DNA of 64,000 nt, taken from NCBI GenBank assembly GCA_036172245.1, contig JAYWIR010000012.1, positions 1,674,001 through 1,738,000 of the forward strand, read 5' to 3'. This document shows positions 4,986 to 64,000 of this stretch, piece after piece. Each line of letters opens with the position of its first letter. Position 1 is the stretch's first letter. The notes below the pieces were generated by a model, which worked only from the letters and a program-made list of their open reading frames with translations, made no database searches and was not told where the DNA came from. The position numbers were made by a program, and so were the translations under genes. Origin of the DNA: Raillietiella orientalis. Its lineage: Eukaryota.

Positions 4986-6184
4986 TCTTCCTCCGCGTCT
5001 CCCCGCCTTCCTCTTCCTGGACTCCACAGCTGGAAGGATAGGCAGGATTACTCCCCTGGAAAGCCGTGCTTCCCGGAGTCCCTGGCGCTCAGAGTCCTCT
5101 CCCTTGCGTCCCTCGAAGCGCAGGAGGGTTTCATGGGAGTCCACAGCCTCCGAGATTCCGATCACGCCAACTTGTATGCTGAGCGGTAATTTCCATGCTT
5201 TCGTTTAAGCAGAGTTCCTAACAAGAAGGAAAGGAGCCTGTGTGGGTTATTTATCGCTCGCCTTACGGTCCGTCGGTGCCTCCATCCTGAGCGCCACCCA
5301 TCACTGGGAAACGCCGGGTCTCCCGGGAACTCGTCCATGACTGTCTCGCTGGAGGCGCTCTTGATTTACTGTCCCCCGCTCCCACCGATGCTTTGTTCCA
5401 TTTTTTTTTTTTCCCCGCTCGACCTTCCAGATTGCGGGGCAACGTGTCACGCATCTCGCTCTCCCCGCACGCCCTTGCGGCCCTTCAGCTCCCTTCCTCC
5501 TCCGAGCTCGCTAGTCGGGATTCGAATTTTAAGCGGATTCCCATTGCGACTGACTCCGGCAGGGAGACACAGCGAACAGGACCCGCCCGCATTTCCTGTC
5601 CAGGTTCCAGCTCGATGGAAGGCTCCAGTCGCCGGAAGCACTGGGATCTATACGTCCCTCCTGCAGACCCTCTTTACGTAGGGTGGCCACGATGGACTTT
5701 TTTTTTCCACTCGATCACGAACGAGGGCGTCCATCTAACAGAAATGAATAAACCAGTCGGTTTCCAACCGAAGGCGAAAGAATTTCGAGAAGATAGCTCA
5801 CCGACATCCAAGTAGGGACATCTCAAAATAGGGAACGGAAAAGGGAGGACAATAAGTAAACAGAGGGAGGTGGGACAACCGTTTTTGTTCATTCCTGCTG
5901 TTGAGAACTGGAGCTGGATGCCGGTCGATCTCCGCCGTCACTTCCTCTTCCGGGTGAGACCACCTCGCAGCCATCCCCATGTGCGTGGCTGCTATGCGGG
6001 TGACCTCCCTTCGCTGTGCCTGCGTCTCCAGCCCATGGCGGACCGTCGTGACGAAGGCGCGGATGCAACTAGTCATTGCGATCACTGCGCCAGTGAACAG
6101 TCCGTCAGGTACGAAGAGCCGCTGCGGTAGGTCACGAGAAATGGTGTCCCCTTGGTTCAGGAGCGGTGATGCCAGCCTCTTTCA

Positions 6185-11497: not shown

Positions 11498-12235
11498 ACC
11501 GCGGCCACACGGCGCTCGCTGGCGGCTCGTGTGGCTGCGGTCTCCGTGCGCGGCACCAGGTGTTGCGGGTTTGAATCCCGCCCGGGGAAGAATCAAACCC
11601 CGAGAACGGCGGTGCGTTGTGGGGTGGAGCTGCTTGGGCGCTGATTAGACCGCAGTCTGCGGTGGCACTGGTGGAAGCCGGATACCGGATGCTCCCGATG
11701 CGTGGCCGGGATTGGATTCTTTGGGATCCTCCCAGGGATCCAAGAGCCCTTTGGGGATCCCCTCTGGTTGTGAAAAATGGGACTGTCCCTCCCCCTCGGG
11801 AGGATCCTCCATCGCGTACCATAGGGCTGGTTGATATCTCTTCAGAGTGTAAGAAGGGCGCTTCTCCCTTCGGGGAGAGCCCTTCAGAGAAATTGGGAAG
11901 CGCTCCTCTTTGGGGTTCTCTTCAGAGAAGGAAACAGGAAGCGATTCCCTTGCGGGTTCCCTCCAGAGAAGAAATTCCGGGAGCAGATCCTTTCGGGATT
12001 CCCTTCGAAGAAGAGAAAAGAAGAACGACCCCCATTACGGGGGTCCCTCCAGAGACAACCAGGCAGAGGGTTCCCTTCGGGGTCCCTCCCAAGCGTAAGA
12101 GGAAAGGACTCCTTCCTTCCTTCGGAGTCTTCCTGGATTCAGAGTATGGTTCCAACGAGGTCATCCCTTAACTTGAAGAGTTACACGCACCCTCAGATGG
12201 TGTGAACAGCCTTAAAGAGCTTTGCGAGTGCCTAA
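11498..12235 (+). mobile_element. SINE-like element copy C (near full length)
   Basis: Head GGCCACACGG...CGTGTGGCTGCGG...GGGTTTGAATCCC, seven ~40-bp hairpin units at 11838-12130, and the shared tail AACTTGAAGAGTTAC... Confidence 0.8.
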
Positions 12236-19200: not shown

Positions 19201-20099
19201 ATCTCGGCGGTCTGTGTCGCTCTGGAACTACGCTCGCTGGAGCGGGAAGTCACCCGCCCAGTCGGCCATGCCCTTGCTCCATTCTGGCGATCATCGCCAC
19301 CCACACGTGCAGACGGGGGACAGAGAGTAGGCGACCGGGAAGCATGGAGAAGTTATCAGCCCTTCTTTAACCGCCTCGTGGCGGTTAAAGAATCGTGGCG
19401 TGGCAGGGCTGCTACCATTCCGCAGTGGGTGCCCTCCTTGGACATTCTCCCTGCTGCGTTGCACGGAAGCGTTTCGCATTCCGGAGGAAGTCCAGTGCAC
19501 CAGCAAGTCAGTGCTCTGCCGGTAGCAAAGAGGCATCAACCAGTAAGCTTTACTGGTTCCGGGGACAAAGGATCAAGCGGAAAGAGTATCTCCGGCTTCC
19601 GAGCAATTAGGACAAGGTGGGCCGAGGCTATTCGGATGTGCCTTCGAAACCGGTGAGTGGTTTGGCCCTGTTCGCTCTTGGATCGTTTTTCCTTCCCCCT
19701 TCCGCACCGTCCTTTGAAGACCAAGCCTGAAGTGGCCAAGCCCTAGTCTTTCGGAGGACACCCGGTGCAGGATTTACAGGATTTATGTTCACGCTGCGAA
19801 CTCCCCTGTTAGGTCAAAAGGGAAAACTTCCTTGGTGACTCGAGCGGCAGTTGCCGACCTGGAGATTTCTGGTAGTCTGCGGGCTGCGTTACGATGTGTG
19901 TTGCTTTCACAACGGCACTTCTTTCTTTTGAGGCATGTGACGGATGCCACCGCTGGGATGATGCTGATCAAGTTTTAGACGAATTCCAGGAATACTCTGA
20001 TGTGTCGTCTTTCAGGACTTCGTTTCAGGCCAGCCGCAGACTCCGCAGGAATTTCTCCTTCAGTTCCTTTATTCGATTTTACGATGAGGAAAAGCTTTG

Positions 20100-21100
20100 A
20101 AATGGAGGCTGCTATTTAGGGGGAAAACGACGATACTTCTTGCCTCGATAGGCTTTGGAGAGTCGCTTTCCATCAACAGGAAGAAATATGTGCACATCCT
20201 TCGTCACCAACAGCACCTTTGGTTGTTTGTCTGCTCCAAAGTCTGTGTGTTCGACCAGCTGTTTGGAATCCAAGCAAAGAGAATCGTCCTTGATTGCAAG
20301 GAACGGATGCAACTTGGCGTCTGGTCTTTCATAGCCAAAGCATCTCTGGAAGTGTTCCACATATCCATCGACTGGAAGTAAGCTCTTCCTACTGGAAGGC
20401 AGCGATTTCTGAATACAAGAATTCTTCTGTTCCCAATTCTCTCAACTATTCCTGATTCGAGAGAATCGGAGGCATAAGGAGGAAGGAAAACTTGCAAGAG
20501 CATCCCCTGTGGTTCCTCCCCTCCAGACCAGCTCTTTTTGGACTGCTCTGAAGAAGTTTTCCTTTTATGGTTTTAGGGATTCTACGTGACTTGAATAGCG
20601 CTGTTTGCCTCATCCGACATATCTCCACGCCCTTTCTGGAAAACACTTTTAATTCGGCCCAACTCTTTGGATTTTCACTGCGGCATTTTCCAGCCTCATA
20701 TTCGTGATCTCACCAACGAAAACAGCTCAAAATGGGACTGCCGCAGGAAATTTTACAATCTGCATTCAAGAATCTCATGTCTGTCGAGTGTGGCCACTGT
20801 GACCGACGCAGCACCAAATTCTTTATCGTGCGGAAAAAGAAACGTCCACCAAGGGGATTTCACGGTGCGGTAAAGGTATGCGTGGTTTCTGTGATGCCAA
20901 GATACCTTTCTTCTGAGACGTCGAGTGTTACAGCGACGGCAGTGATCTTCGGAGGTGGGGAGGTAGATGTGACGTGAATCGACTTGCATGTGCGACGAGC
21001 ATCGGTGATGCTCATCGGAAGAGAATGCGGAAGATGAAACGTGAGAACAAACTCGTGATTTGGCACTCAGTTTGTCTTGGAGGGAGAATGAAGTTCCCTT
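20100..21100 (-). mobile_element. Probable decayed hAT-superfamily transposase
   Basis: AVAVTLDVSEERYLGITETTHTF (cf. the hAT first catalytic Asp region TxDxW....YLGIT.HF) and downstream DMWNTS (cf. TRWNS). Many frameshifts. Confidence 0.4.
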
Positions 21101-22889
21101 CGCAACCGTGAGAGCAAAGACATCGCTGGGTGCTCTGAGATGATAACAGAAGCCGTGGAAGACTCTTAACACTCAGATTCGTAGAGCAGGTTTCCAGATG
21201 GCGTTTCGAAATCCGACGAATTAAAATGTCTCCGAAGGAAGGAGTGAGCGGTTATCAGGCAGCTCTGCAAGATGCACAAATCGTTCCCCGCTTTGTTCCT
21301 TGAATCCCTACTGCTCCTCTCATTTCCACCGAAGTTCTCGTCTTCAACCCTTCTTACCTCTCTGAGCTATGTGCTGAGAAATCTTCGCTAGCACTGACCG
21401 TCCCTTTTCCCTGGTCCGACACTCCGCTCGGAACTTTGGGAAGTTGAAAAAAGGATTCACTTTCTTCAAGAAGCGAAGAAGGACGAATATCGGACTCTGA
21501 TGGAAGAAGCGCCTGTCAACACGAAGCACTCGTGGAACTCAGTACTCTCTCAAGAGCCAGAAATTTCGGAGGAAAGTTCTGACTTGAGCGTGGATAGGAG
21601 GCATGCAACGTGATTCTCATCCAACTGCCATGGACCAACCAGTTCAGGAACTCCGGAGAATACGCAGCCTGCTTCAATGGATGCACGTAAAAGAAGTCCA
21701 TCATCTCTGACAGCAGGCGGATGCAGACAGAGGATCGCAAGAAAGGACTTTTCTTGTTTGCGTGTTTCAGCACGCGTGCATCCTCGTGTTCCACGCCTTC
21801 ACCAAGTGTCACTGGTGGGCATGACTTCCTCACACCAAGGGTGAAGCTGTCACCACTAGAGAATGCTTGCATGATGCGATGGTTGCGTTCCACAGCAGAG
21901 GACCTCCGATTGCAAGCATCCGAAAGAGGCAGAGTACGATGCTCAGACCTCTTGGTGTGGGGGAAACTTGGCTGCTTTGCAACGAGATGCACAAAGGATG
22001 GAAACGCTGTACCCTCGTCGTTTGTTCCTCTCCTGAAGCGTATGCCGCGGGTGCTGTCACCCGAGGGAGATGGAAAATCGGTGGAGCAAATCGACTCTCT
22101 CCTCATTCATCGTCATTTCTTCTGGGGACCATAGGATCCGGGATGCAGGAACAAACAAATGGGAAGAGTCGTTGGTAGAGTCCCGAAGTGAGAGTCCCGC
22201 AAACACAGAGCAGCTGTGCTCTCGAACACCGTGCGGAACTCGGAACACCACGACCAGGTGCAATTACACATATTCCCCCTGTCCTGGACAGTTCCACCAT
22301 TGCTTTGAACCTGGCTGCTCGCCCATCTTTACCTTGTCCGGAGCAGACCCTAGAAATTCATGTTCAGCACCGTGAGACTGACCCACCCCCTACTTATTCA
22401 TTTATTTACTGGTCATCCAGTTATCCACTCCCCCCTAATTTTGCTTCAGTCTGCGTATTCGGGCAGGCTCACTGAGGTCTCCAGAACTGGCAGACTCCAG
22501 GTCTCTTCAGCAGCAGACGAGGAGATCCGACGGCAGTGGCAAGTGTGACCACTTCCCAAGCAAGATGTCGTCGTGCCTCCTGCAGCAGAACTACTCCGAG
22601 GCATTGGATGAAAGGGAGCGGTTCTTCATTTTATTTAAATCAATCTAGGATGAGAGGGTCTTGCCCAGATGTTTATATAAACACATAAACAGACTGTACA
22701 AAAATGCAGCCAAGTGACTTACAGATCGACCTCGTGCATGGAAAAAACGGATGAGAGTAGACAAAACATAAAAAAAAAAAGCGTTGGAGAGTCGAAATCT
22801 GTCTAAAGTGCATCAATAAATCTGAAAAGGAGGAAAAGGGGGAGTGATTTTTACCGTAGTTCATTACGGAAGCTGAGGAAGGAGGACTC

Positions 22890-23520
22890 CAGTGTCTTGA
22901 GGTGCAGGCGGCGTTGAGCCAGTCGGCACCATGGAAGACTTCTCCCTGTTCACTTCAGATCTGTCCCGCCGAGAAACAGGGGTTGCGTCGTGGGTTTCGA
23001 GTTCCCCCTCCCCCCCTTTCTGCAGGATGACGCTACCTCCGGATACTCCCGTTGACTGGCCTCCGGGATTGGAATTTGGCCCTCCGGGTCCTCCCAAGAA
23101 TCGAGGAGCCGTCCCCTCCCCCAAGGGGGGGGGGGCTCTCCATCGCCTTCCATTAGATCTGGTTGACTGAAACCTCTCCAGAGTGCAAGAAGCGCGCTGC
23201 TCCCTTCGGGGGAGGAGGTGACCTTCAGAGTATACTGGGAAGTGTCCCTTCGGGGTTCCTCTTCAGAGGAGGAGCAAACAAGGATCGGTTCCCTTGCAGA
23301 TTCCCTTTGGATAAGAAAATGAGGAGCATTCTTCCCTCCTGGGGGTCCCCTCTGGGGAGAGAATAAGGAAGGAGGTTCCCTTCGGGGCACTCTTTGGAGA
23401 CAGCCAGGGTAGAGGGTTCCCTTCGGGAATCCCCTACCAAGCGCAAGAGGAACGGACTCCTTCCTGCTCCAGAGCCCTTCCTAGATCCATGGGCGGTCCC
23501 CTCCCAGGGTACCCTCGGAC
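22890..23520 (+). mobile_element. SINE-like element copy D (degenerate head)
   Basis: Hairpin array CCCTTCGGGG/CCCTTGCAG... at 23170-23470 plus AAGCGCAAGAGGAACGGACTCC, colinear with copies C, F and G. Confidence 0.75.
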
Positions 23521-24010
23521 TTAGAGAGTTGCTACCTTCTCGGAGGAGGAAAGCGGGAGAGGGAACAAACCTAGCCAAAGACCGACTGCACCGAAACGTT
23601 GAAGAAGAACTAACGATGGGCAGCCGTGGGAGGTTTCATGGTTACCCGATGAGCCACCATGGAAGACCTCGGTCTTGTGCACGGCTGTGAGATGGATTTT
23701 TGTGAAGAGTGAATCTCCCTCGCCTCCGTTCCTGGAAATCGACAGTTTCCGCAGTGACGGGGACGACGACCAGTTCCCCGTCGTCTCCATGACCACCTTT
23801 GTCGTGACGGGATCGCGATGATTGTCGCCATTGCACGGTCCTCATGGTTGAGGCAGACATCGTTGAGGAGGTGCGAACCCGGTTATGACGGGACGTTTAT
23901 TTTGTAAGCAAAATAAACTGCAAGTTAGAGGGGGAAAGTATCGCCTCAAAGAACAAGAAATGCCAAAAAAAAAAAAAATTCTGGGATACCCACCGACACG
24001 CTTCCAAAAA

Positions 24011-24178
24011 GTAGGTGCTGCTAGTTCAATAGCGGCAATTGACCACGATGTTAATTGTTTTGTAGAGAGCAATTCCACCAGCAATAGTCATGCAGAAACA
24101 TTTTTTCAAATTTTGAACTCTCTGTTCAAAAAGCACAATTACAACTACGATAAAATAGACCACTTCACGGTCGTAGTT
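24011..24178 (+). pseudogene. tsaB: Fragment of bacterial tRNA threonylcarbamoyladenosine biosynthesis protein TsaB (YeaZ), Wolbachia/Rickettsiales-like; putative nuclear endosymbiont insertion
   Basis: VGAASSIAAIDHDVNCFVESNSTSNSHAETFFQILNSLFKKHNYNYDKIDHFTVVV is the TsaB segment between N-terminal ILAIDT and GPGSFTG (S.HAE.....I..L and .ID...V motifs). It forms an AT-rich island in GC-richer DNA. Recognised from memory, not by search. Confidence 0.75.
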
Positions 24179-24559
24179 AGGGAACGAAGGGAGAGGACAA
24201 TAGATAAATAAAAAAGAAGATGCGTACAGGGTTCTTTGGTATGAGACGTTTCTTAATTTTTAGAAGCGGCTCTGGACGGTGGCGATCTCCCTGGCGACTT
24301 CTTCTGGCAGATGAGGCCACCTTACTGCATTCCTCATGAGTGCTGCTGCCATTCTGGTGGCCTCTATTCGCTGCGAACCTGACTCCAACACTTGGCGAAC
24401 TGTCGCTATGGCGCTGATGCAACAGAGTGCTGCGATGACAGCGCCCTTCTTCGGTCCACTTTCTGTGAAGAATCGTCACAGCAAGTCCGTTGCAGTGTCC
24501 TGCGGTCGACGCTGAGGCGAGTCTCTTCCACAAGTCCTCGAGGGCACTGCGTTGAGTTG

Positions 24560-25100
24560 GTGAGGCCGTCTTGCCATCTGCCTCATCATGGAAGGGGGTG
24601 GAATGGGAGGACGCCCTTCCGTCACCCCATTGCGTGGCGAGATGCGACAACTGCAGCAAAGCTTCGCCGGCAGCCCTTGTCACGTGAAGAGCAGCGCTCA
24701 GAAAAGCTGCCGAGGAGAGTCTTCCGGGAACAAGAGGGCTGCTGCCGCTACCCGTCATCCGCTGTGGATAGACTTCCATTCCAGCTTGGAGCCAACTCGC
24801 TCAATAACGGTATTCGCAACGTGCCGCCCTCGCAGGGAACATCACTGGAGCGTTCACGAGAGTGGTGGCGACCACTAGTCAATCCAAGCAATGCCATGGA
24901 CTCCTGTCATCAATGTAGTGATCAAGTCGCGGGGTCTAGAAGTTCTCCTGGATTACCTTATAAGTTTGCAGACTACTGCTACGGGGAAGACCTTCCACTT
25001 AGCCACTTTGCGTCTGTCCGCTCCCATTGGGAAAGGGACTCTGAGGCTAGGGGCGACGACGCTGGTGCGTGTGACCACTTCTCTCGTCGTACCACCTGCA
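24560..25100 (+). mobile_element. Decayed LINE RT fragment (RTE-like motifs)
   Basis: FQLGANSLNNGIRNV...ERSREWWRPLVNPSNAMDS (cf. Q.GF..S..D.I...EKSRE..RPL...D..KAFDS), followed by KSRGLE..LDYL. Confidence 0.55.
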
Positions 25101-26299
25101 GGAGGAACTGCCCCGAGGCGTTGGATGAAGGGAGGAGTTCCGGACTGACCCGAGAGACCCATGTTTATGCAACTGGAGCCTCCTGCCGCTACGCGTTGCG
25201 ATTTAGCGGCAGATAGGAGATCCATGCGTGCTTCGCAGGAGGGAAGCTTTTGGTTGCGGACCGATCCACTCCGCATCCCCAAGAATGGGAGTGTCCCTCA
25301 TCGAAGGGATGAACTGATCTCCAGGATTCGAAACCGCAGCCTCCTACTCGTCGGTCCTGATGGCTCCTGTTTCGACGTGTGTGCGAACCTAAGAGGCACG
25401 GTCTTTTTCTGGAGACTGGACTCTGAAGATTTGCACTCGGTGATTCATGTCCCAGACGGCGCCCTCAGCAGAAGCTCCGACTTTACTGGACATCTGAAAA
25501 CCTCACGTCGCCTGAGGAACACACGATGATGGAAGAATAGGAATGGCAGAACAGAAATCAAGCGGTACCGCGACGGAAAAATGGAGACGCACAGGAAGAA
25601 ACCTTGCCGATCGGTAGCCCGCTGCGCACTTTTGTCCCTCGCACGAGTAGCAAAAGTCTTATTTCGAGTTTTCTTTAGACGGATTTTTCTTCCAAGAGGA
25701 GGAAGAAATTTGAACCCTTTCGATCATATCAGCCGAGTGTATCTTTCGCAACAGTGCTGGAAGATACTTTGTTTCGCGATCGCTGAGATGCTTGTCTAGA
25801 ATCATTGGGAAGGGGGAGACGGTGCAAGTCTCTTCCTCTTAACTGGTGGAGTATCTGCCTAGAGATGCGAGCAAACGGAAGAGAAGGAAGAAGAATTTCA
25901 CCCTAATTTTCTCTGTTAGGCAACTTGGAGGGATTTTTCGGTCTCGGGAATGAGATCCCGACTGCGCTGCAAGCCGAAGTGTCACTTGCAGTGCAGCACT
26001 TACCTCACAGGGAGCTGGATCAAAAGGACTGCCGAGATGGCCCGCGGCAATTAAAATGACCCTGCACCTGAGCATTGGCCGGAGTCCCTGACAAGCAGCG
26101 CTTCGAGTCGCAAGCAGCAAAAAGAAACTGAGCAAAGCCGATGAAGCGCAGCCATCTCCTGGCCTCACTCCTCCGTGGTCACTCCAGGATGCATCTCTCC
26201 GCTCAAGCGAGCCCATGGGTATCTCCCCACCTTCGTACTTCAGGGTGCCGCCACGCTTTCGTCGTGCTCCTCTAGGAGCTTCCCTTTCATACAGTGCCC

Positions 26300-26460
26300 A
26301 ACGAAGAAAGGGATGGTTCTTTAAACGGCCAGCGCCTCGGGTTGGACCAGGACCACTCCGCATCATCTGACAGCCTGTGACGTTCCACGACCAAGATGGC
26401 ACCGCACCACAATAACAGTTTCCCCTTCCAGGAGACGACTCCCCAAGCATTGCCAAGGCG
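26300..26460 (-). mobile_element. Possible decayed LINE ORF2 C-terminal Cys/His fragment
   Basis: GNCYCGAVPSWSWNVTGC spacing resembles C.CG..E...H....C. Confidence 0.3.
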
Positions 26461-27419
26461 ATTTACAGGCTGAAGAACTTTCTTTGACCTCAAACCCAAT
26501 GCTCCATCCGAGAGATGAAAATGACCTCTTCTCGTGAAGATTTGAAGCCAAGCGACACATCAGAGGGCACCATCGTTCCCGTCACCTCCACCATACGGAA
26601 GGGGATGAGAAGCAGCTGCCCTCAGCTGCAGCCATAAAGGAGTGCGTTGGTAGGCGTCATGCGAGCACTCCGAGGAAGAACTGCAAGAACTCCCTTCTCT
26701 TTCCTTTCCAGCTTCCCGCAACCCAGTACCGATATTCCACCCATCGGCTCCATCCCCACATCCCCGCCCACATCAGCGAGCCCTGTTCTTGCGCGGTAGA
26801 AGGCGGCGCTCCTGCTGTTTCCAAGAAACGCGACCGAACTCCGGGAAACAGGAAGGGGTCTCTGGTCATTCAGAAGGAAGTGGATGGCTTCGGTCCACTT
26901 GCTTGGTCCCTGCGTCCAAGATTAACACTGGGTCGCGCAGACGACCCAGAGGTCACAAAGCAGCAGATCCGAAGTGCATCCCTTGCACTCAGTGTGAGAC
27001 CTCCAGATCGAAGTGACCTTTCCAGGCTGTCCACTTCTTTCCCAAGAGGCAAAGCGGTTCGGGAAGAAAAGGGAAGGCTGCAGCTTCGTGCCGCGCTTCC
27101 CACTCAGCCCTCGCGGAAAGGAACTTTTCCTCTGCGCTCCTGGTGGTGCTTGCGTGAACTGGGAGGACATGCGTCGCTGTCCCTCGCAACGACGAGCTGC
27201 GAAGGGCAGAGACAGGCATGTCACCTACGTCTTTGACCTTCCTGTGCAGCAAGCAAGAGAAAAATCTTCAGCCCTCCCAAGTGAAGAACCCACCCAATTG
27301 ACTCTGACTGACGCAAGGACTCACCTGGGGACGACCCTCGCTCCCCGCTCGTGAGAGCATCTGCTTTTAAAGACGTCTGAAATTCGTTTGTTGCGTGTTC
27401 CATCGTTCTTAGCGGGGTT

Positions 27420-28205
27420 CCCTTTTTGGAAGGTTCTCAAAGGGTGCTGAAGAACCGTTCGCCTTCTAAGAAAAGGGGAGGTCACAAATCTCTTGAACGC
27501 TGTCCACGCCACCCGAGGATTCGTGTGGCTCTTCAAGTTAGAGGGCGATTCCGAATGCCCACCCTATAGACCCAGGAAGGCTCCGGAGCAAAGAGTCCTT
27601 TCCTCTCAAGCTTGAAGGTAGGAACCACGAAAGGAATCCCTTCTCTCTCATTCTCTCTGGAGGGACTTCCCGGTTTGCGGGGACCACCACAAACCGGGAA
27701 GGGAACTCGGAAAGCATCCACTCCTGAATTTCTCCTCCGGATGACACCCTCAAGGGAACCGCTTCCTCCTTCTTTGTTTCTTCCTCTGAAGAGAACCCCG
27801 AAGGGAAGCATTCCAGTTTCTCTGAAGGGCTCTCCCCGAAGAGAGCAGTGTGCTTCTGACGCTCTAAAGAGGCGACCCTTTGAGGAGGGTTTCAACCAGC
27901 TTCATGAAGCCGAAAGATAGGAGTGGCCACCGTTCACAACCGGAGGGAACCCCAAGGGGGTCTCTGGTTTCCGGAAGGACCCTGGAGGTCAATTTCAATC
28001 CAGGCCAGCCAACAGGGTATCCGACTTCTGGCTATTCCCACCAGTGCCGCACCCGAAGAGGCCAATTAGCGTATTCCTGCGATCCACACCCCTGTTCTCG
28101 GCGTAGGTTCTTCTCCAGGTGGGATTGGAACCCGCAACGCTCGGTGCCACACTCCGAGACCACAGCCACACGGCCTCCAGAGCGAGTCGTGTGGCCACAC
28201 GTGGT
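27420..28205 (-). mobile_element. SINE-like element copy E (near full length)
   Basis: Minus-strand head GGCCACACG...CGTGTGGCTG...GGGTTCCAATCCC, followed by the array and tail as in copies C and G. Confidence 0.8.
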
Positions 28206-30154: not shown

Positions 30155-30970
30155 CCACGAGGCCACACAACCACAGAGAGATGTCGCACGCTCGCGTTGG
30201 CGGCCGTGTGGCTGCGCGTGGAAACAAGCATTACTGGTTAGAATCCCGAAACGATTGGTACGAGGAAGCATCGACGCCGAGAACGGGGAGAGGAGGGATC
30301 ATAGGTTTCAGTGCCTTTCGCAGGATGATTCTGGCTGGCCTGCAGGCTTCGGGTGCATCACTGGCGGTAGCCGGAGATCGGATGTACCCGTTGACCGACC
30401 GGGATTGGAAGTTGACCTTCCGACATACTTTCAGGAATTAAGGAAGCAGTTCCTTTTGAGATTCCTCCCCGTTTGTGCAAATAAAGCTGTCTCCCGCCTT
30501 AGGGGGACCCTTCATTTTATACTATTGAGCTAGTCGATACCCCCCTCGGGGGTGGACCTCTCTAGAGCGTCAGAAGCGCTCTGTTCCTTTCGAGGTTCTC
30601 TTCAGAGGAGGAAGCAAAGAAGGTGCGGAGCGTTTCCCTCGGAGGTTCCCTCTGGAGGAGAAACGAGAAGCAACGCCCACAAATTAGAATTTTCCTCCTG
30701 CAAACCAGAGGTTCCCTCCTTAGAGGGTTTCTTCCGGAGAGAAAATGGAAGAGGCAGGTTCCTTCCGGAGACAACTGGGTCCAGGATTCCCTTCGGAAGC
30801 GTAAGAGGAACGGGACTTCTCCCTCTGGAGCCTTCCTGGATCCATTAGGTGGTCCCTACGAGGTTGCTCTCTATAACTTGGAGAGTCGCATGCACCCTCG
30901 GGTGGCATGGACGGTGTTGACGAGCTTTGTGAGCTCCCCCAAGGAGGCGAAGGTCCTCTTGGTTCTTCAG
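30155..30970 (+). mobile_element. SINE-like element copy F
   Basis: Head GCTCGCGTTGGCGGCCGTGTGGCTGC...GGTTAGAATCCC, array at 30540-30840, tail CCATTAGGTGGTC...ATAACTTGGAGAGTCGCATGCACCCTCGG. Confidence 0.75.
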
Positions 30971-42379: not shown

Positions 42380-43180
42380 GATGCAAGTCTGGCTCGCGTT
42401 GGCGGCCGCGCGGCACGAAGCGTCACGGGTTCGAATCCCACCTGGGGAAGGATCGACTCCGAGACCTGGAGGCTTCGAGTGCAGCATCAGTGGAACCTGG
42501 AAACCGGATGAAACCGGATGCCCCTGTTGACTGGCTTCCAATCCTGACCTGCTGGCTGGACGGGATTGGAAGTTGGACCTCTGGGGTCCTTCCAGCATAT
42601 CAAAGAGTCCTTCGGGGTTTTTCACGGTTGTGAAAATGGAGCCGTTCTTCCTCTTTCTGGATGGACCTTTCATCGCGATCCATGGAGCTGGTTGATGCCG
42701 AGGGGGCATGGTGCTCCAGGGTGTCAGAAACGCACTGCTCCCTTCCGAGAGAGCGCCTCAGAAAAAAGTGTGTCCCTTCAGGGTTCTCTTCAGAAGAGTA
42801 AAGAAGGAGTGGTTCCCTTGCGGGTTCCCTCTGAAGAAGAAATGAGAAGTGGCTCCAGAAACCAGAGGGTCCCTCCAGAAAGAACAAGTAAGAATCTCTT
42901 CCCTTCGGGGCTCCCTTCGTAGACAACGAGGACGAGGGTTTCCTTCGGAGTTCCCTCCCAAGCGTCAGAGGAACGGACTCCTTTCGGAGCCTTCCTGGAT
43001 CCATTAGGTGGTCGCTTAGGGGATGCCCTCTATAACCTGAAGAGTCACATGCCCCTCGGATCGCATAGACAGTGTCAAAGAGCTTCGTGACTTCCTACAA
43101 GTTCCGAACACGGTTCTTCGGCACTCCTTGGGAACCAAAAAAAAAAGAAAAAGCTGAAAGGAAAGCAGCGAAAACAGAAC
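42380..43180 (+). mobile_element. SINE-like element copy G (near full length)
   Basis: Head with perfect B box GGGTTCGAATCCC at about 42427, array at 42730-43000, tail ending in A-rich AACCAAAAAAAAAAGAAAAAGCTG. Confidence 0.8.
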
Positions 43181-51165: not shown

Positions 51166-51305
51166 CCTCGCCCCTCCTCTCCATCAGCACCACCACCAGC
51201 ATACGTAGTGCACGTGCACTGAGCCCTGCGAACCTCAGTCTCCACTCTCACCTTACCCCTGAAAACCTGCTGACCCCGGCTCTGTTCTCTCTCCCTCTCC
51301 TCCAG

Positions 51306-52351
51306 GCATCGTTTGGACCGTTCCAAGAAGATGAAGAAGCGGATCGTCATGAAGAACGGGGACGTGAACGTGAAGCTGAACAACGTCTCCAAGGAGAGCC
51401 ACCGCTTCCTGGCCGACATCTTCACGACTCTGGTGGACTCCAAGTGGCGGTACACGCTGCTGGTGTTCTCGCTTAGCTTCATCCTGGAGTGGCTGGGCTT
51501 CGCCATCCTGTGGTGGCTCATCGCGTACTCTCACGGAGACCTGGAACCGGAGAACCTGCCCCCCAACCAGCAGGACTCCGGTTGGAAGCCCTGCGTCAAA
51601 GAGATTCACAACTTCGCCTCGTGCTTCCTCTTCAGCGTCGAGACGCAGCACACGATCGGGTACGGCTACCGGCACGCCACCGAGGAGTGCACGGAGGGCG
51701 TGCTCCTGCTGTGCCTGCAGAGCATCCTGGGCATCATGAGCCAGGCCTTCATGGTGGGCGTGGTCTTCGCGAAGCTGGCCAGGCCCACCAAGCGCACTGA
51801 GACGGTGCTCTTCAGCAGGAGCGCCGTGGTCGCTTGCAGGGACAGCCGCCTCTGCCTGATGTTCCGCGTGGGTGACCTGCGCAAGACGCGCGTCATCGAG
51901 GCCCACGTGCGCGCACAGCTCATACGCAAGAGGTTCACCAGGGAGGGCGAACTGATCCCCTTCGAGCAGCTGGAGCTGAAGCTCGGCTTCGACGGGGAAG
52001 AGGACAGGCTGATGCTCTTCTGGCCCACCGTCATCGTCCACCGGATCGACAGCGCCAGCCCCATGTATGAAATGTCGGCTTTCGACGTCCTGCGAGAAAA
52101 ATTCGAGATTTTAGTCACTCTGGAGGGCATTAGCGAGTCCACGTCTACGAGTCTGCAGGCCCGATCGTCCTACTTGCCCTGCGAGATACAGTGGGGCCGC
52201 CGCTTCGAGTCCCTAGTCGCTTACAAGGGGGACACGAACGAGTTTCAGGTGGACATGAAGCAATTCAACCGCACCTACGAGGTGGAGACCCCCCACTGCT
52301 CCGCCAGTGAGCTGGACAGGTACCTCCGGAAGATGGACGCAGCCACGGCCA
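51306..52351 (+). CDS. Kir: Inward-rectifier potassium channel (Kir/Irk family, insect Irk2-like), main exon
   Basis: DIFTTLVDSKWR slide helix, two TM helices, selectivity filter SVETQHTIGYG, AKLARP, CLMFRVGDLRK, IEAHVRAQL, FEILVTLEG and ARSSYLP. Acceptor ...CTCCAG|51306 and donor A|GTAAGT at 52352. Confidence 0.97.
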
Positions 52352-55213
52352 GTAAGTAGCATCTCTTCTGCCGCCCGCCCCTTGGCCCCGACCCCTCCCG
52401 TTGGTGCGCTTTTCCCGGGAGCGTGGCGCGACCCTGGCGGAAAAGCGCCGTCCGAGGAGGAGCGGATCATTCCCTTCCTCCCATGGTGCTTCGCGCTTCC
52501 GGCAGGTGGACTCAAGAGGGGTGGAGTGATGGAGTGGTGTCCGATACGAAAGGGGGGGAGTCGAGCAGCCCGCGGCGAAAGTCCTAGCGGCCTTCCAGGC
52601 GATTCCCTTCCTCCCCGCGCGACCTCTTTCACCCCTTGCCTGCGGAAATGCCAGGCTCTCCGCGCCTGCCTGACGATCCCCTTTGGAAACACCCGTCGCT
52701 CCCTTCCTTAGAACTTCCCCCCGCTTGGGTCCCTCCCTCACTTCCACCCCTTTCCTGATTCGCTTGTTGCCTGCGCACGTGACCCACCGAATCCGCGTGC
52801 GAGGGGGAGGGGTGGCCAATGCGGATAGTGGACCAGATGGCCTTCCTATGCCTTCCGCGCGCCCGACAGCCCTAGGGCACGTCTCCGGGAGAGCGCTCCA
52901 GTGGCGCGCGAGAGATTTTGGTCCAGAGAGGGCTGGAAAAGAGGGCAGAAGTCCCTGCTTCACCCGGGCATGGAGGTTGGGCCTCCTGGTCTTTCCGCTG
53001 GCCCCAGGAGTTTCTCTGCTCAGACGGGTTCCGCATTCTTCCTGATCTCAAACCGAGATCCAGCGATCCCCTTTGCTGGGCGCCGCGCGAGAGATCTTCG
53101 CTCTCGCTACGCCTGCGGTAACAAAGGGGCACGGTTAACCCCTCCCCTAGTCCCTCAGGCCCTTGCGGGGGAACCCTTGGGATCTGGCCGATGGATGCGG
53201 GCCGCCGGGATCCACCCATTGCAGTCGCTGCTGCGGGCAGTGCAGTCACCGTAGACGAGATTCGTCTCCATGTTGGTGAAGTCAGTTGCAGGTGACTTCG
53301 ACGCATGCATCCCGCGTTGGGCCTTTCGCTCTCCCCCACCGCCTTGGCCGGTTCTCGCCCGGCAGCTTGGCAGTGACCTCGTGACCCCATCTGATCTCTC
53401 AGATCGCGAGTCTTCCTTTTACTTCGCAGCACCCCGGCTGCTGGCCGGTCTTCCTGAGGGAGACTCGTGCTCTCCCCTGATGCAGAAGCCACGAGTCACT
53501 TCCGGTCTCGAACCCTCTGGGAACAGTGGAGAGGTCCTGCCCTCTCAGCGAGAGGGCAAGACCTGGGAGTCGTTCCTCTTCTGACGGCCCTCACGGCGTC
53601 ACTCGACCCGAGGCCCTTGACTTCGGTGAGGTGATGTCGCGAGCTCTGACCACCTGAGCCGAGAGCTCGTCCGCTGGCCTTGGAGAGAACCATGTGTCCC
53701 GGGGACCCCCGGTGGCGGCCTGGACAAGCTCGTTTCAAACTCCGCTCGTATGCAAGGGGTCAACCCGCTACCTCCCTCTCCCCCCCTCCCTCCGCATGAT
53801 CTCCAGTTGTACTGCTCTGGCTGCCGGCTGGCTTCCTGCCGGGGGTTGCGAGAGAGTGCAGGCAGGGAGGAGGGGGGACGAAGAGGAAAGAGGTGGTCGT
53901 GGCCACCGGAGGTGGCTCCTACTACTCGGAACATCTTCACGGGGGGTCGCCGGCGCCTCTTCTTTCAACTAGGACCAACGCAAGGTCCATCCAGGAGGAA
54001 GTGGGGTCCTTTTCCTGCAGGATGAGACGTCAGACGCCGCGTCCGCTGCCACCTGCCCAAGAGACGTTCGCGAGGAACGAGGAGCCTGGCATCCGGAAAC
54101 GGGAGACCCTCGCTGAAGGAAGACTCCGGCCGTGGTCCACGCGCGAGACGATGGCCTTTCCCCGCCTCCGTGGGGATCTGCTCCAAGAGTCGGCTTTCTC
54201 CTTCTGCGGCTTTGCACGTCCCAGTCATGCCTGCTCCTCACACCCCGCTTCCCAATCCCTCTTTGTTCACCTCCGTCCTCGACCCCTCCAACGCGCATTC
54301 TTGGGTTGCTGGCGCCTTCTCCTCACCGGGGGGAAAGCGGGGAGCACCGTCCTGAAGACCTGCGAGAAGAAGCTGCTCCCTCGCTCCCTGTTATCGTGGA
54401 GTCCCCCCCCCCCCCCAACGGTTGGATCCACGAGGTGACATCGTCGCCTGCGGACACGTGGGCGTTCGCTTGGGATGACACAAACTTTTCGTTTCTTTTT
54501 GTTTCCGACGCCCATGCACCCCCGTGTTTGCTCAGGGATGCTCCGACGCGCTAGGGCGGCCTGCAGCTTTTGGAGGGTGATGCATCTCTAGAAGACCCAC
54601 GGCTGCGCCCTAGGAGAGATGCTTAACATCCGTTGGCGCCAATGGATGCCGCCGCCGCGCCCTCTCGAGTTGAACTCTCGAGGCTGCTCTCAACCTCCCC
54701 CTAAGGGACCCTCCTCTCCTGCTGAGCGCCAGGACCGCCGACGTGCGGGCTCCACTACCGTCCGCGAGAGGAAAGCGAATGTGACCTGGGTCGCGGCGCG
54801 CCGTCTGGTCAAGAAGAGCCTGGAGGCGATCGCGGGCTTGACCTCTTTCCGAGCACAACCCATCCTAACCGGAGGGACGGGTCGAATTCCTTGGCGGACC
54901 GCATCCGACCCGTCTCCTTCCCCGGAGAATCTCAGCCCCCGAAGCTCCGCCACTGTAACTCCTTGAGGCCTTTGGAAGATTCTTCTCCTGCTCCGTCCTC
55001 TCCGGCATGGACCGGCGAATCCCTGCGGAGGGGACTTCGGGAGCTTCACCCCTGCCGGTCCTTGCGCCTGCGCGCTTCCTTCCAGCAGCGCTTGCTCGAA
55101 AGTACTCCTCGATGTAGAGGGAGGGTAACGATGGAAGATCCACGGTTTTCCCTTCCCTCCTCCTCCTCTTGCTCCCCACACCACTCCTCTCTCTCTCCGT
55201 GCGTGCGTTTCAG

Positions 55214-56059: not shown

Positions 56060-56815
56060 CAGTCTTCGACACGGTTCCACGCCACCCGAGGGTGGGTAAT
56101 TCTTCAAGATAGGGCGTACCCCGGGAGGGGTCCGCCCTATGAATTCAGGAAGGACTCGGAGTCCGTTCCTCTCACGCTTGTGGAGGGATCCCGGAAATGG
56201 ACATCACCTCCATCCTGGTTGTCTCTGAAGGTGAATCCAGAAGAGAATGCTCCTTCCTTATTCTCTCCGGAGGACCCCAGTTGGGTCCACTCCATTCTTT
56301 CTTCTCTGAAGGGAGCCCGGAAAGGATCCGACCCTGGAATTTCTTCTCCGGAGGGATCTCCCTCAAGGGATCCGCTCCTGTTTTTACTCCTCTGAAGAGA
56401 AGCCAGAAAGGACGCTTCCGAAATTCAGAAGGACGCAGCTTCCCCGAAGGGATCGGTTCGCTTCTCTGCACTCTCTGGAGAGGTGGTGGCGACACAGCTA
56501 CTCCATCAGTATGACGGGGAGGGTCCCCCCGGAATGGGAGGTTCGCTCCTTCACAACCGGAGGGAAGCTCCCACTCCGTGATTCCTGGAAGAATACGGAA
56601 GTCGACTCCCATTTGTCCCGGCCGTCATCGGGGGCATCCGGTTTGAACCGCTACCAGTGTCGCACCCGGATGAATGTAGGACGACCAGCGTCATCTTGCG
56701 GGGTGAACTCGGATTCCACGACGCACTGAGTCGATTCCTTCGGAATATTCGAACCCACGACGCATGGTGCCACGCACAGGGACCACCGTAACCACACGGC
56801 CTCCGACCCGGGCAT
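56060..56815 (-). mobile_element. SINE-like element copy I
   Basis: Colinear with copy A (1-797) and inverted relative to copy H. Confidence 0.8.
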
Positions 56816-59308: not shown

Positions 59309-62300
59309 CTTACACAAAAAATTGGATGATATCTTGAATCAGGATGCACTTACAGGAGATCCACAATGTTCATTCACTTCCAAATTAGTTGATCGCTGTC
59401 TGAGACCATGGTCACAAACTCGACAAACCCAGTACCGACGTACACGAGAAGAATTTTCTTCTCCATTGCATTCTTGATGACACAACTTGCCACAAGAGGA
59501 GCATTTTAACAGTTCACCATCTTCACCACAATGATGGCACATCTCCGATTTGCCAATCAAATCTTTGAGAGTATCAGCACGCTGACATGATATACAATGC
59601 CAGGAAGTTTGGGGCAAGCTGGTTAACATGGGTCGTAAGCAACTTAGATGGTAACCTCTGTCACATATTTCACACACAACCATGGGAAAGCTGCCTTCTT
59701 TTCGATGGCACACCTGACACCTTTTGTTCTTAGGTGTTTGCTCCCATTTAATGGATACATCAAGCAAAGCTAGCAATAGCAACTGACGAGATGAAGTGCT
59801 AGCCATCTGCACTTCTGAACGCCATGTATTCAGCAATATGCTACCAGCTGTTGCCAGTGGCTCTTTCAAGTAGCGTGATGGAATAGATGCTTCACATCTG
59901 AGTAATAAATTGAGCATATCAGCGTTATCTGCTATCTAGCAATATAACAACAAATGGAAAAATCGTGAAGCACAGATCACTTACCTCACAAATCTCCTGA
60001 TTCATTTCCTGTAAACCTCCCAATTGTTTATTCAGAAGCTCCTCATTCAGATCCAGCAGTTCTTGAATAACACAACTTTTACCTCCATCGTTTGGGTTAG
60101 TAGCTAATGGTGCTACTCTTCCCTCACTAAATACTTGTAAGTCATTTTCATTGTCTCCGAATCTTTCTCACCTTGCTGGCAAATTGGTGTCCATTTTTAG
60201 AGAAGGCAAAACAGAGATGATTTTCTTCTTCAGAGCTGACTCTCGGATTCCTTGATCCAGTAAGCAAGAGACCAACTGATTCACTTCATCCTTTGTGGAG
60301 TACACAAACCACAAGTTCTGTCCTGGAGTTGGCAATGTGGTTCCTTGGTTTACATTCTCACAATCCGCCAAAGAATAGGAATACACTGGAGAAGATGCCC
60401 ATCCCTTTTCAACATATAAAGCTGTGCTGGAATGAAACAGCCAGTAACGATTGTGGAAGCGATCCATGCCGAGTGGCACGATACGCCGACACTTTTTCAT
60501 CTCTTGTGTGACTCCATCCAATTGCTTCTTGATTTTAATTTTCATCTGACGCCAGTGATCCTTGAGAAATCTATAAAGCAGTGAGAATTGTTAACCAACA
60601 TCATCCAACATACCTATCTTTCTTTTCTTCTTCATGTTTTTTTTTCAACTTCTTCAATTCTTTGATTTTTTGATGCCGATGGCGCACTGTAGACAGCAAT
60701 GAAGAGGGAACATCAGCACTGGGAAGACACTGATCAGCAGTGTCATCTGCAAACGCATTATGAAGTGCCCCGGAGTCAGAGAGCAGAAACTAAGGTCAGG
60801 CAAGTAGGATCAGGTCAAAAGGATATCAGATTACCACTCTGTTACAACAAATAAAACCACTCACCCTGAGGTTCTTTTGAAAACATATCCTTGATCTTCT
60901 GAGGTTCCTTGTTTTCAAGCTTACTCCAGTGTTCATGCCACTCTTGCCAGAGTGTATGTAATTTGTTTTTCTGCTCTTCCAGATAAGTGAGCACAGATGA
61001 AGAAGCCAGAACTTCATTGGCCAAAGCTGTCAATAGTTGCACTTTATGGGTGGGCTGTAAGTCTACCCAATCAACATCTTCAAGTTCAGCCAATACCTCA
61101 TAAGGCTGCTTTCCTTATTATACACTATTCTGCATCATTACTCACATAAAAATCACAAGGGCAGCCTAAGATATGCTCCACCTTGCGGGCACATAATGTC
61201 AAATAAATGCGGGCTATTTCTGGTGCAGTCAATACATGCAGAGGAATGCTGTGCAATCGCAACTTCATGTGGAAAAAATCCTGGAAAAAAAGCTATAAGC
61301 CATGTACTTCTTCAAGTGCGCTCACTTTGGAATTTGGATCTGCAAGAAGCACCCTCAATAAAGCAAGCAGTATTTCCGCAAGTAAGGGCCATCCCTCTGG
61401 TCCAGCACATACTGCACCCATCAAAATATCTGCAGTCACTCTCTCCTTTAAATTAATAACAGCCTTGTAGCAGTGTAACAATTCCACAATTATCATCACA
61501 TCACCAAAGTATTCATTGGGCAAGCCCTCGGGAGTGCTTACTAAGGATGGAAGTGGTAAAGGATTATTCCCAATTAAAATCGTGTCTTCCTGAAGCTAAG
61601 AAATGAAAAACTCGTACATGCAATGGCTTGAAATGACACTACCTTGGCTTGAACAGGAAGTTGCTGTTTTTGTTTTTGAGTACTATGCTTCCATTCATTT
61701 GAAGGAACCTGTTTCTGCTGTTTTTTCTTGGAAGCCCTCTCATGTTTAAGGAATTCCTTTCTTTCAACTTCTGTCATAGTTTGTAGTAACTGGCAGCGCA
61801 TTATTTTAGCCTTTTTGGCCTAGGAGACGAAAGTAATCGAAAATATTCGGATGTACGATCATTCCAGATTCACCTGAATAAGATCCTGCAATTCCGTGGG
61901 CAAATGCTGGAGCTGTCCATCAGTCATTACTTTAGCACACATGCGCACTAATTTAGTAATCTCTGGCGTAATGTTGTTCTCCTTATGTTTCAGCTGAAGA
62001 CGTCGGGCACATGCAGGCAAATGAATGTCTCCTAATTTTTTCGCAGAATGCTGCTTGCAGTCAGCATCTTGCAACCTAGGAGATGCTGACTGTTTCTCAC
62101 AGGTCGAATCACTTTCTTTGGTTTTTTTTTGAGATTTAGGCACTTTCACAATACTTTGTTTCCAAGTTGACTCCAACGTCCTTTGTTTCCCGTCTGGGTG
62201 TAACTTGGACTGCATCTTCTTTTCTGAAGATACTGCTTTGCAGACCTTAGTGGAAACTACTGATTTTTTGGCCTTCTTGGTGGTAGCATCTAATTTAAAT

Positions 62301-64000
62301 GGTTTCTTCTTTTCTAAATCACTTGGATTCTTTCGCTTTCGATTTTTCCCATTCCGACAATCTGTACTGTAGCTATGGTCAGCTATGTTGTTTTCCTCAA
62401 CATTTTCAGGCTGCAGCACACAGTAATTATGTTCATCCTTTGAAGGTGAGCTACGTTGGGCTGCATACTCTTTGCTCTGACCATGGGAGCTGTAATTATG
62501 GTCTTTCAGCCTAACAACGGGAAGACAGAAGTTTTCAAGACATCTGGCCATCTCTTCTATTGCTTCAGAACTCCCATTCAATTTCAACAAACTGTAACTG
62601 TGATCACTGGCCGTTTTACTGTTACAAGCACCTTTTGGCTTTTTGGAGGAACTATAACTATGGTCACCGGAATCATTTGGTTCCTTTCTCTGGAAACAAT
62701 TTAAGAAGCTCATGTACTCAAGAGTTTTGCATACCTTATCTGAAAGGGAAAATCTTTTGGCAATGTCTTGGTTTACAAGCCAACAACCCAAATCCTTTCT
62801 TTGAGTTGCAAACTCGGGAATCAAAGAATACAGTTCCGAAGTTGATGGGAGAACGTCTTTTCTTCTATTGCATGAAAATGGCATGAATAAAAAACACGTA
62901 TTTACTTGCAAATCTTTTTACCTAATTACATTTTCAAAATTAGTAGTATGATTATATAAAGTTTTACAAACAAAATTATGCAAAAAATGTTAGACATGCA
63001 TCTCATAAATTATGCAAACTAGATATACTGATATGTAATTAACTAGGTAAACAAAAATATACAGTATGGTAAAATAATTTCTGGAAAATTGAATGCATGA
63101 TTTCTATGATACCTAATTTCAGACAAGGGCACAAAATTTAACAATTTATTTTCTTCTGGAAGAAGAATGGAATAAGTATTTGGAGCTGCATTATTGCTGT
63201 TTTCTTTATTTCCTTCACCACAATCCACAATTTCACCACATATTCTACATATTGATATTTTGTACTCATATCTATTTAAAGCATACTTACCTTTTACCTG
63301 ATTTGTTGATAGGCAATTCTACTATTTCACCATTATAAAAGTGATTCTCTAGATGTGATGTAATTTTTTTTGTAAGAGCTTTTAAATTATCACGACCTAT
63401 AAGAAGAAAACGAACTTGAGTTATCTGCATTTCAAAAGGAACTATCCACAACAAAAAAAACCAGATGATGGGGAGAAAAAAAAAAAAACACACACACATA
63501 ACATGACAATAAATCTGCAAAATCTGAAAAGTGGAAAACTTGGTGACTGGCATATGAACACAGTGAGGCAATCACGATACGGCTTTACTGGCACGATTTC
63601 GAAATCTAAATGCACATTACAATAATAACTGGGTGCATTCTAAAGTCTCCTGATAGACGCAGACATTTGCAGGCACACGCAAAAGATCTCAAACCCGGAA
63701 TTTCAACTGTTCATCATGAAACGTTAACTCGTCTGCACAAAGGCAAAATCAAATGATATGAGCCACAAGAAAAACACTGAAGGCACCCTCCGATTCTTGC
63801 TACATTACTTAAAATGAGCTTCAACGAAAACGTATCACGACAATGCTACAAAGAACACGGTACTTGGTTTCAACATTTCAACTTTCCGTGCCACGGATGG
63901 CAAAGCATCATAGGAAACAATCTCTTACTATGATGAATGATTTCTAAAATCGGCCGTTTAAGTTCTTCGGATAGTGCGAGCCTCTGGAAATATTCCATTG
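59159..64000 (-). CDS. BAZ1B: BAZ1B/WSTF-like (BAZ1 family) ISWI-associated chromatin factor, multi-exon, 5' end beyond the window
   Basis: WAC C-terminal part (LKRPILEIIHHSRDNLKAL...FYNGE), DDT (STPEGLPNEYFGDVMIIVELLHCY, WSTF-like), WHIM1 (HKVQLLTALANEVL), WHIM2/3 (PLGMDRFHNRYWLF; LLDQGIRESALK) and PHD fingers. Phase-consistent GT-AG introns include 63397-63928, 63245-63290, 62865-63112, 62690-62734, 61820-61873, 61590-61642, 61281-61325, 60571-60613, 60127-60171, 59936-59984 and 59309-59353. Exon borders near 60.8 and 61.1 kb are uncertain. Confidence 0.85.
59354..59935 (-). CDS. BAZ1B-like exon encoding two PHD fingers
   Basis: CQVC...CEIC....H..C...W.CISC and CHHC...CSSC....H..C...WVCRVC. 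Confidence 0.9.

Follow-up and report, generated by a model that had tools for sequence, protein, structure and literature searches.

The window, the whole stretch of 64,000 nucleotides that was analysed, carries a short piece of the bacterial gene tsaB inside the tail of an old retrotransposon. Very probably, this piece is a nuclear Wolbachia transfer (NUWT) from a supergroup F-like strain, captured by end joining in the retrotransposon tail and neutral since. It is apparently an ordinary, functionless fossil of symbiont-to-host transfer, one of many and no rarity in this genome.

Translation confirmed the frame of 56 uninterrupted codons reported by the first-pass annotation (24011-24178, plus strand), which is open and without a stop. 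Direct homologue searches established its identity as TsaB, as that annotation had proposed: all 32 proteins found (from 41 candidates) carry PF00814, at 70–86% identity and with a best E value of 7.6e-23, and the likeness to Wolbachia was borne out, all six GTDB loci among the matches listed being from Wolbachia. In nucleotide comparisons, the tsaB segment was matched in 56 of 60 Wolbachia genomes, the best match being wPaur, the Wolbachia of Penenirmus auritus. The insert differs from wPaur tsaB at 16 of 168 bases without any gap (90.5% identity), and over codons 9–64 the amino-acid identity is 84%. The peptide does end between ILAIDT and GPGSFTG, as had been noticed, both motifs lying just beyond the transferred codons. 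Compared with Wolbachia TsaB (YeaZ; PF00814, TIGR03725), the insert retains 56 of about 202 residues and lacks the start, the two motifs and the C-terminal part, and it cannot work as TsaB. Eukaryotes are not known to use TsaB and have KEOPS and Qri7 in its place.

By itself, the 56-residue peptide matched nothing at the cut-offs of Pfam, NCBIfam or PDB. Against TIGR03725 it aligned with profile positions 10–61 of 212 (E 0.0028), and its 17.7 bits fall below the curated cut-off of 69.3 for full-length TsaB, making it a fragment and no member of that family. In the whole assembly, tsaB was found as this piece and a 61-base piece on contig C9 only, with no whole tsaB. The C9 piece covers about codons 112–131 and is one of seven Wolbachia pieces of 46–69 bases that lie within 0.7 kb (C9:3546420-3547120).

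The insert could also be placed among the Wolbachia supergroups, as the first-pass annotation had anticipated. In a tree of 30 rows, one long-branch row having been dropped from 31, it grouped with 10 F-like rows with support 99/98; with all 31 rows, it grouped with wPaur and the strain from Mansonella ozzardi (84/98). Apart from the insert, the donor tree covers Wolbachia rows only. According to the available portions of two reports, wPaur and the Mansonella ozzardi Wolbachia belong to supergroup F (PMC9903615, PMC12693587). The insert is thus of Wolbachia origin and nested in Wolbachia diversity, as a NUWT should be, and its nearest rows include named F strains. An AU test on the 168 bases, using groups named after inspection of the tree, rejected one alternative placement (p = 0.0095) and did not reject another (p = 0.20). 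Because one alternative stands and the groups were named post hoc, the F placement from this segment alone is only suggestive. On another contig, a 1,042-base Wolbachia piece has its closest matches in the same genomes, with identities of 91–95%, and none of the remaining genomes among the 60 exceeds 88%; this piece supports an F-like source for the inserts of this genome. The 168-base tsaB segment of strain wCon from Tribolium confusum, which we take to belong to supergroup B, also fell with the F-like rows, possibly through recombination.

The surroundings of the insert differ from the earlier description, which had placed it with a SINE on one side and a LINE on the other. A single repeat makes up both flanks, which adjoin each other in its other copies. 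Since we found neither a tRNA gene in the window nor an Rfam match in 20000-28000, a distinct SINE headed by tRNA- or 5S-derived sequence is absent, and the supposed SINE on the left is a continuation of the same element. At the element end (23867-23900), AATAAA is followed by a short inverted repeat and then by a tRNA B-box-like word near 23870, with no long poly(A), and this end may have been the source of the SINE call. Likewise, the AT-rich island with abrupt ends described at first does not coincide with the insert. The GC content is 37.5% in the insert, 40.7% in the adjoining host UTR on the left and 36.6% on the right, and the step to about 57% occurs at roughly 23870 and 24260, away from the insert ends; the island is the host UTR plus the insert together.

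The host element exists in a high number of copies: a first look with its coding end returned 4,767 candidates, and all 150 that were scored matched. This coding end had no Pfam hit of its own. A paralogous frame aligned (30%, E 9e-11) with a frame that matches zf-RVT (PF13966) at E 4.8e-5, below the cut-off, a second pair of frames aligned more weakly, and in the Atlas the coding end scored 0.90–0.91 to reverse-transcriptase zinc-binding clusters. Judging from these sequence likenesses, of which that to zf-RVT is indirect, the element is probably the 3′ end of a LINE-like retrotransposon. The copies compared cover the 3′ part of the element, and it is there that the high copy number, the UTR and the zf-RVT likeness are seen. 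A more distant relative of the coding end, with 50% amino-acid identity, occurs at 5927-6118 on the minus strand of the window.

The insert lies antisense within the 3′ UTR, 81 bases past the stop codon of the element. A genome search with 23900-24300, in which the best 40 of 190 candidates were scored, yielded 53 matches elsewhere: the right flank was matched 39 times and the left flank 14 times, and no match covered the insert. The site was empty in all 12 other copies examined. Host nuclear sequence therefore stands on both sides of the insert.

These empty copies allowed us to read both junctions. At the left join, GTAGG occurs in the six commonest donor forms listed, and AAGTAGG[GA]AAC was read at seven of the 12 empty host sites; because GTAGG is exact in only those seven, the pre-insertion letters of this copy are inferred. 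A microhomology of at least 5 bases appeared in 0.5% of simulated blunt joins. At the right join, the T at 24178 fits the donor too, a 1-base overlap. In three empty copies the matches to the left and right flanks overlap by 4 bases, and the site shows a net gain of 166 bases with no host loss. The distance from a nearby motif to the site is 21 in the window and 29 in 8 of the 12 empty copies (30, 34, 23 and none in the others), revealing a small deletion private to this copy. The GTAGG microhomology and the TAGG duplication fit end-joining repair of a DNA break. A study on organelle-derived insertions describes blunt joins and joins with short microhomology as characteristic of end joining (PMC6215612). 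A fold-back stem at the right junction (24143-24151 with 24170-24178) was considered and discarded, because it did not stand out from shuffled sequence (z −1.07), 27 of 200 shuffles doing equally well.

The mechanism that we propose would begin with a chromosome break in an old LINE-like 3′ UTR, in a germ-line cell whose arthropod host carried supergroup F-like Wolbachia. Repair of the break would have captured a short fragment of Wolbachia DNA. One of its ends may have annealed via the five common bases GTAGG, the other having been joined with the 1-base overlap; TAGG could have come to stand on both sides through a staggered cut or through fill-in. The piece would have entered at about its present size, never as a whole gene, and then undergone neutral decay. 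End joining is the probable pathway, its classical and polymerase-theta types being indistinguishable here, and the insert was presumably fixed through the germ line and presumably has no function.

Table 1. Features of the insert, its junctions and its host element (positions in the window).
Feature	Position	Strand	Basis
Wolbachia tsaB fragment, codons 9–64 of ~202	24011..24178	+	Ungapped alignment, genome comparison, tree
Left-junction microhomology GTAGG, common to donor gene and host target	24011..24015	+	Donor rows, empty sites
Second TAGG (first at 24012-24015) of a 4-base target duplication	24178..24181	+	Flank overlap, letters
Deletion of 8 bases in this copy, ~9 bases to the left of the insert	24000..24003	.	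Motif-to-site distance
Chimeric 83-codon ORF: ATG and 17 antisense-UTR codons, 56 tsaB codons, 10 UTR codons, stop	23960..24211	+	Translation
5′-truncated copy of a high-copy, putatively LINE-like retrotransposon, hosting the insert	23867..~24563	-	72–78% identical to 12 copies
Decayed coding end (C-terminal) of the element, with stop codon 24260-24262	24260..24563	-	Paralogous-frame alignment, Atlas
AT-rich 3′ UTR of the element, AATAAA near its end	23867..24259	-	Alignment with empty copies, GC content

The mutations of the insert are unlike those found among Wolbachia. Ten of its letters are absent from all eight closest Wolbachia rows, and these private letters comprise seven transversions and three transitions, as against 7 and 32 among the Wolbachia rows (Fisher p = 0.003), which is as expected of decay in the nucleus; some of them could be the donor's own, since the true donor strain is absent from the 60 genomes compared. 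Nine are replacements and one is silent, as against 21 and 18 among the Wolbachia rows (p = 0.066, not significant alone; p = 0.032 for the replacement excess without the last 13 bases). Because two Wolbachia rows, among which private letters number 0–6 per row, are also replacement-skewed (3:0 and 5:1), the transversion excess is the stronger sign of decay. Near the right end, three private changes fall within 7 bases, a clustering that was not significant (p = 0.28). Truncation at both ends and the transversion excess, although in small numbers, thus indicate release from selection, and together with the missing motifs they support the first-pass view that the fragment is non-functional. The open frame is little informative, since 74% of simulated copies remained free of stops after 10 random substitutions.

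Wolbachia DNA is widespread in the rest of the assembly (210 Mb in 491 contigs, the window being on contig C12). A search with 6.2 kb of Wolbachia sequence produced 14 matches, spread over 10 contigs, and four 20-kb queries from Wolbachia reference G016, two picked blind and two picked as repeat-poor, gave at least 54, 60, 43 and 62 matches; a 20-kb control query from phage T4 gave none in the assembly. Together, the four queries identified at least 87 Wolbachia-like places on at least 48 contigs and covered at least 16,633 of 64,293 single-copy query bases (26%), in pieces of 185 bases in the median. A few long matches of less than 70% identity may be conserved host genes. The same Wolbachia-like pieces occur with identical scores at C80:7099-7440, C29:2776246-2776587 and C29:2937732-2938073, which suggests duplication after insertion.

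Among 17 stretches around the first matches, nine regions contained 82 pieces with a median of 168 bases. One patchwork, at C56:13400-29800, consists of 39 pieces of about 50–1,040 bases with scattered origins in the reference, mostly butted end to end. Smaller patchworks of two to seven pieces were found at C35:910563-911128, C31:2108250-2109220, C4:3221010-3222270, C36:448600-452020, C2:37570-38900 and C13:4344440-4344920, and several small patchworks include sequence with dozens of copies in the reference. Ends of single-copy pieces fell inside long reference ORFs in 74 of 102 cases (background, 64%), so the order of the pieces is not accounted for by gene-level rearrangements separating donor and reference. 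At 38 shard-to-shard junctions (gap of 12 bases or less), in regions chosen because they matched and judged against a reference that differs from the donor, mean microhomology was 1.53 versus 0.70 in controls, and microhomology of at least 3 bases was present at 10 of the 38 versus 5.5% (0 of 20,000 resamples). Longer transfers occur as well, as indicated by largely colinear Wolbachia DNA at C34:2038548-2042158 (a block of 3.6 kb at 83–88%) and C6:36030-43400 (pieces of up to 1.9 kb at 88–92%).

A strict first look for bacterial 16S in the assembly gave three matches, the sole full-length one spanning 1,843 bases at 513 bits, which would better fit host 18S. This result is no proof of an uninfected animal, because symbiont contigs may have been filtered out.

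The first-pass annotation had argued from the small size and eukaryotic flanks of the fragment that it is no contaminant. Its conclusion now has stronger grounds: the empty site, the end-joining marks, the non-Wolbachia mutation spectrum, the absence of a whole tsaB and the dozens of similar inserts. These bear on the possibility of an assembly or library chimera, in which a read or contig of live Wolbachia was joined into the host repeat. Misjoins do occur at repeats, and the junctions are placed here from the assembly sequence. In one sequencing run (8% of words), 22500-26000 was represented by 40 short low-depth contigs, two of them at 99% or more, and these contigs had zero depth in the bin 24021-24137, a result that speaks neither for nor against a chimera. 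Nevertheless, we consider a chimera very unlikely, because the differences that separate the insert from every Wolbachia are rich in transversions and free of indels, the 4-base duplication is neat and lies at a homologous empty site, and the assembly lacks a whole tsaB. Moreover, the sequence on either side of the insert is that of this particular diverged copy, at 72–78% identity to other copies, and identity to one reference varies among the sister inserts from about 78% to 97%, which suggests different ages.

It is also highly improbable that the piece was captured by the retrotransposon itself, its reverse transcriptase having switched during insertion from the element RNA to RNA or DNA of Wolbachia tsaB and then returned. 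Such a route would account for an insert in a LINE-like 3′ UTR with microhomology at the joins, and an RNA route has been proposed for Brugia nuwts in the available part of one report (PMC3849323). However, tsaB is antisense to the element, and a jump to mRNA would be expected to give the same sense. The insert is 6–10% diverged from its relatives, as compared with 22–28% between the host copy and other copies, suggesting a later event, and the sister inserts in the 17 stretches show no consistent link to the element.

The small size of the fragment could alternatively reflect a larger Wolbachia insertion trimmed by later deletions. Decaying large insertions are known from a recent report (10.64898/2026.09.16.751987), multi-kilobase colinear pieces exist in this genome on C6 and C34, and the 8-base deletion sits beside the left junction. 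This explanation appears extremely unlikely, as the host resumes without loss on either side, the duplication is intact, the piece is colinear without an internal gap and a deletion would need to end exactly at the junction; furthermore, the 64-kb window gave no other Wolbachia match to the 1.2 of 1.25 Mb of reference G016 that were compared.

There is, finally, next to no chance that the 83-codon chimeric ORF is a functional new microgene, expressed and kept by selection: although it is complete, with an ATG that lies in frame 17 codons before the tsaB part and a stop 10 codons after it, and begins with MPKKKK, nine of the 10 private changes alter an amino acid, an open frame is expected by chance at the simulated frequency given above, the piece is without both conserved motifs and how long an A-run is determines the frame. 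We take this ORF, which by its sequence bears no sign of selection, as a product of chance.

The preferred reading, capture of a short Wolbachia piece by end joining, agrees with what is known of other transfers. In the available portions of the corresponding reports, filarial genomes contain hundreds of NUWT regions, mostly non-functional, classed by supergroup and enriched near some repeat classes (PMC12693587), most Brugia nuwts measure 100–200 bp (PMC3849323), and pseudogenised Wolbachia DNA is common in arthropod genomes (10.64898/2026.09.16.751987). As far as those portions go, the insert resembles filarial and arthropod NUWTs in being a short gene fragment of placeable supergroup, nuclear, among repeats and apparently neutral. 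It differs from them in that the pre-insertion site is readable from paralogous copies of the repeat, with both terminal junctions resolved, and in that many of its sister inserts string shards from distant parts of the Wolbachia chromosome end to end into patchworks. Blunt or short-microhomology joins and several distant fragments per insert are also features of numts and nupts formed by NHEJ, as described in PMC6215612. That study was restricted to inner junctions; here it is the terminal junctions that can be seen. Unlike in numts and nupts, the donor is a bacterial endosymbiont and not an organelle. Among the titles and opening abstract lines of open-access papers, we found no account of junction microhomology or patchworks in Wolbachia transfers, and this junction-level aspect may be undescribed, a weak negative.

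A repeat with thousands of copies provides a built-in empty site, so that terminal junctions can be read without a sister genome. We tentatively consider a broader model, which we hold to be possible if somewhat doubtful: by a distinct route of symbiont DNA uptake, Wolbachia DNA may enter pre-cut into shards of about 50–500 bases, used singly, as at this locus, or strung together, as on C56, to serve as end-joining filler, rather than as long blocks that erode. At least a quarter of the single-copy Wolbachia DNA sampled would then be present in this form. Under such a model, the present locus, with its readable empty site, would be a direct demonstration that a shard entered at its present size, and a genome-wide set of such sites would test entry as pre-cut shards via end joining.

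The locus indicates that supergroup F-like Wolbachia once inhabited the germ line of this arthropod lineage. Nuclear pieces of this kind could pass for infection in PCR or read screens. That the host is an arthropod follows from an uninterrupted 361-codon frame at 51274-52359 (plus strand) encoding a whole inward-rectifier potassium channel (IRK, IRK_C), which matches arthropod proteins of many orders, being 47–64% identical to those of insects, crustaceans and a myriapod alike among the best 120 of 806 matches. A Pfam search of 20 frames from the window detected only this channel and a PHD finger. The PHD-finger frame (59339-59935, minus strand) and a 352-codon frame without a Pfam hit (61859-62917, minus strand) are located in the AT-richer end of the window (34–41% GC) and probably represent host-gene exons. 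The window also contains a second dispersed repeat, rich in GC, in at least seven copies that are 67–77% alike, at 24-280, 11807-12141, 23137-23514, 27751-27872, 30585-30672, 42714-43004 and 56116-56484.
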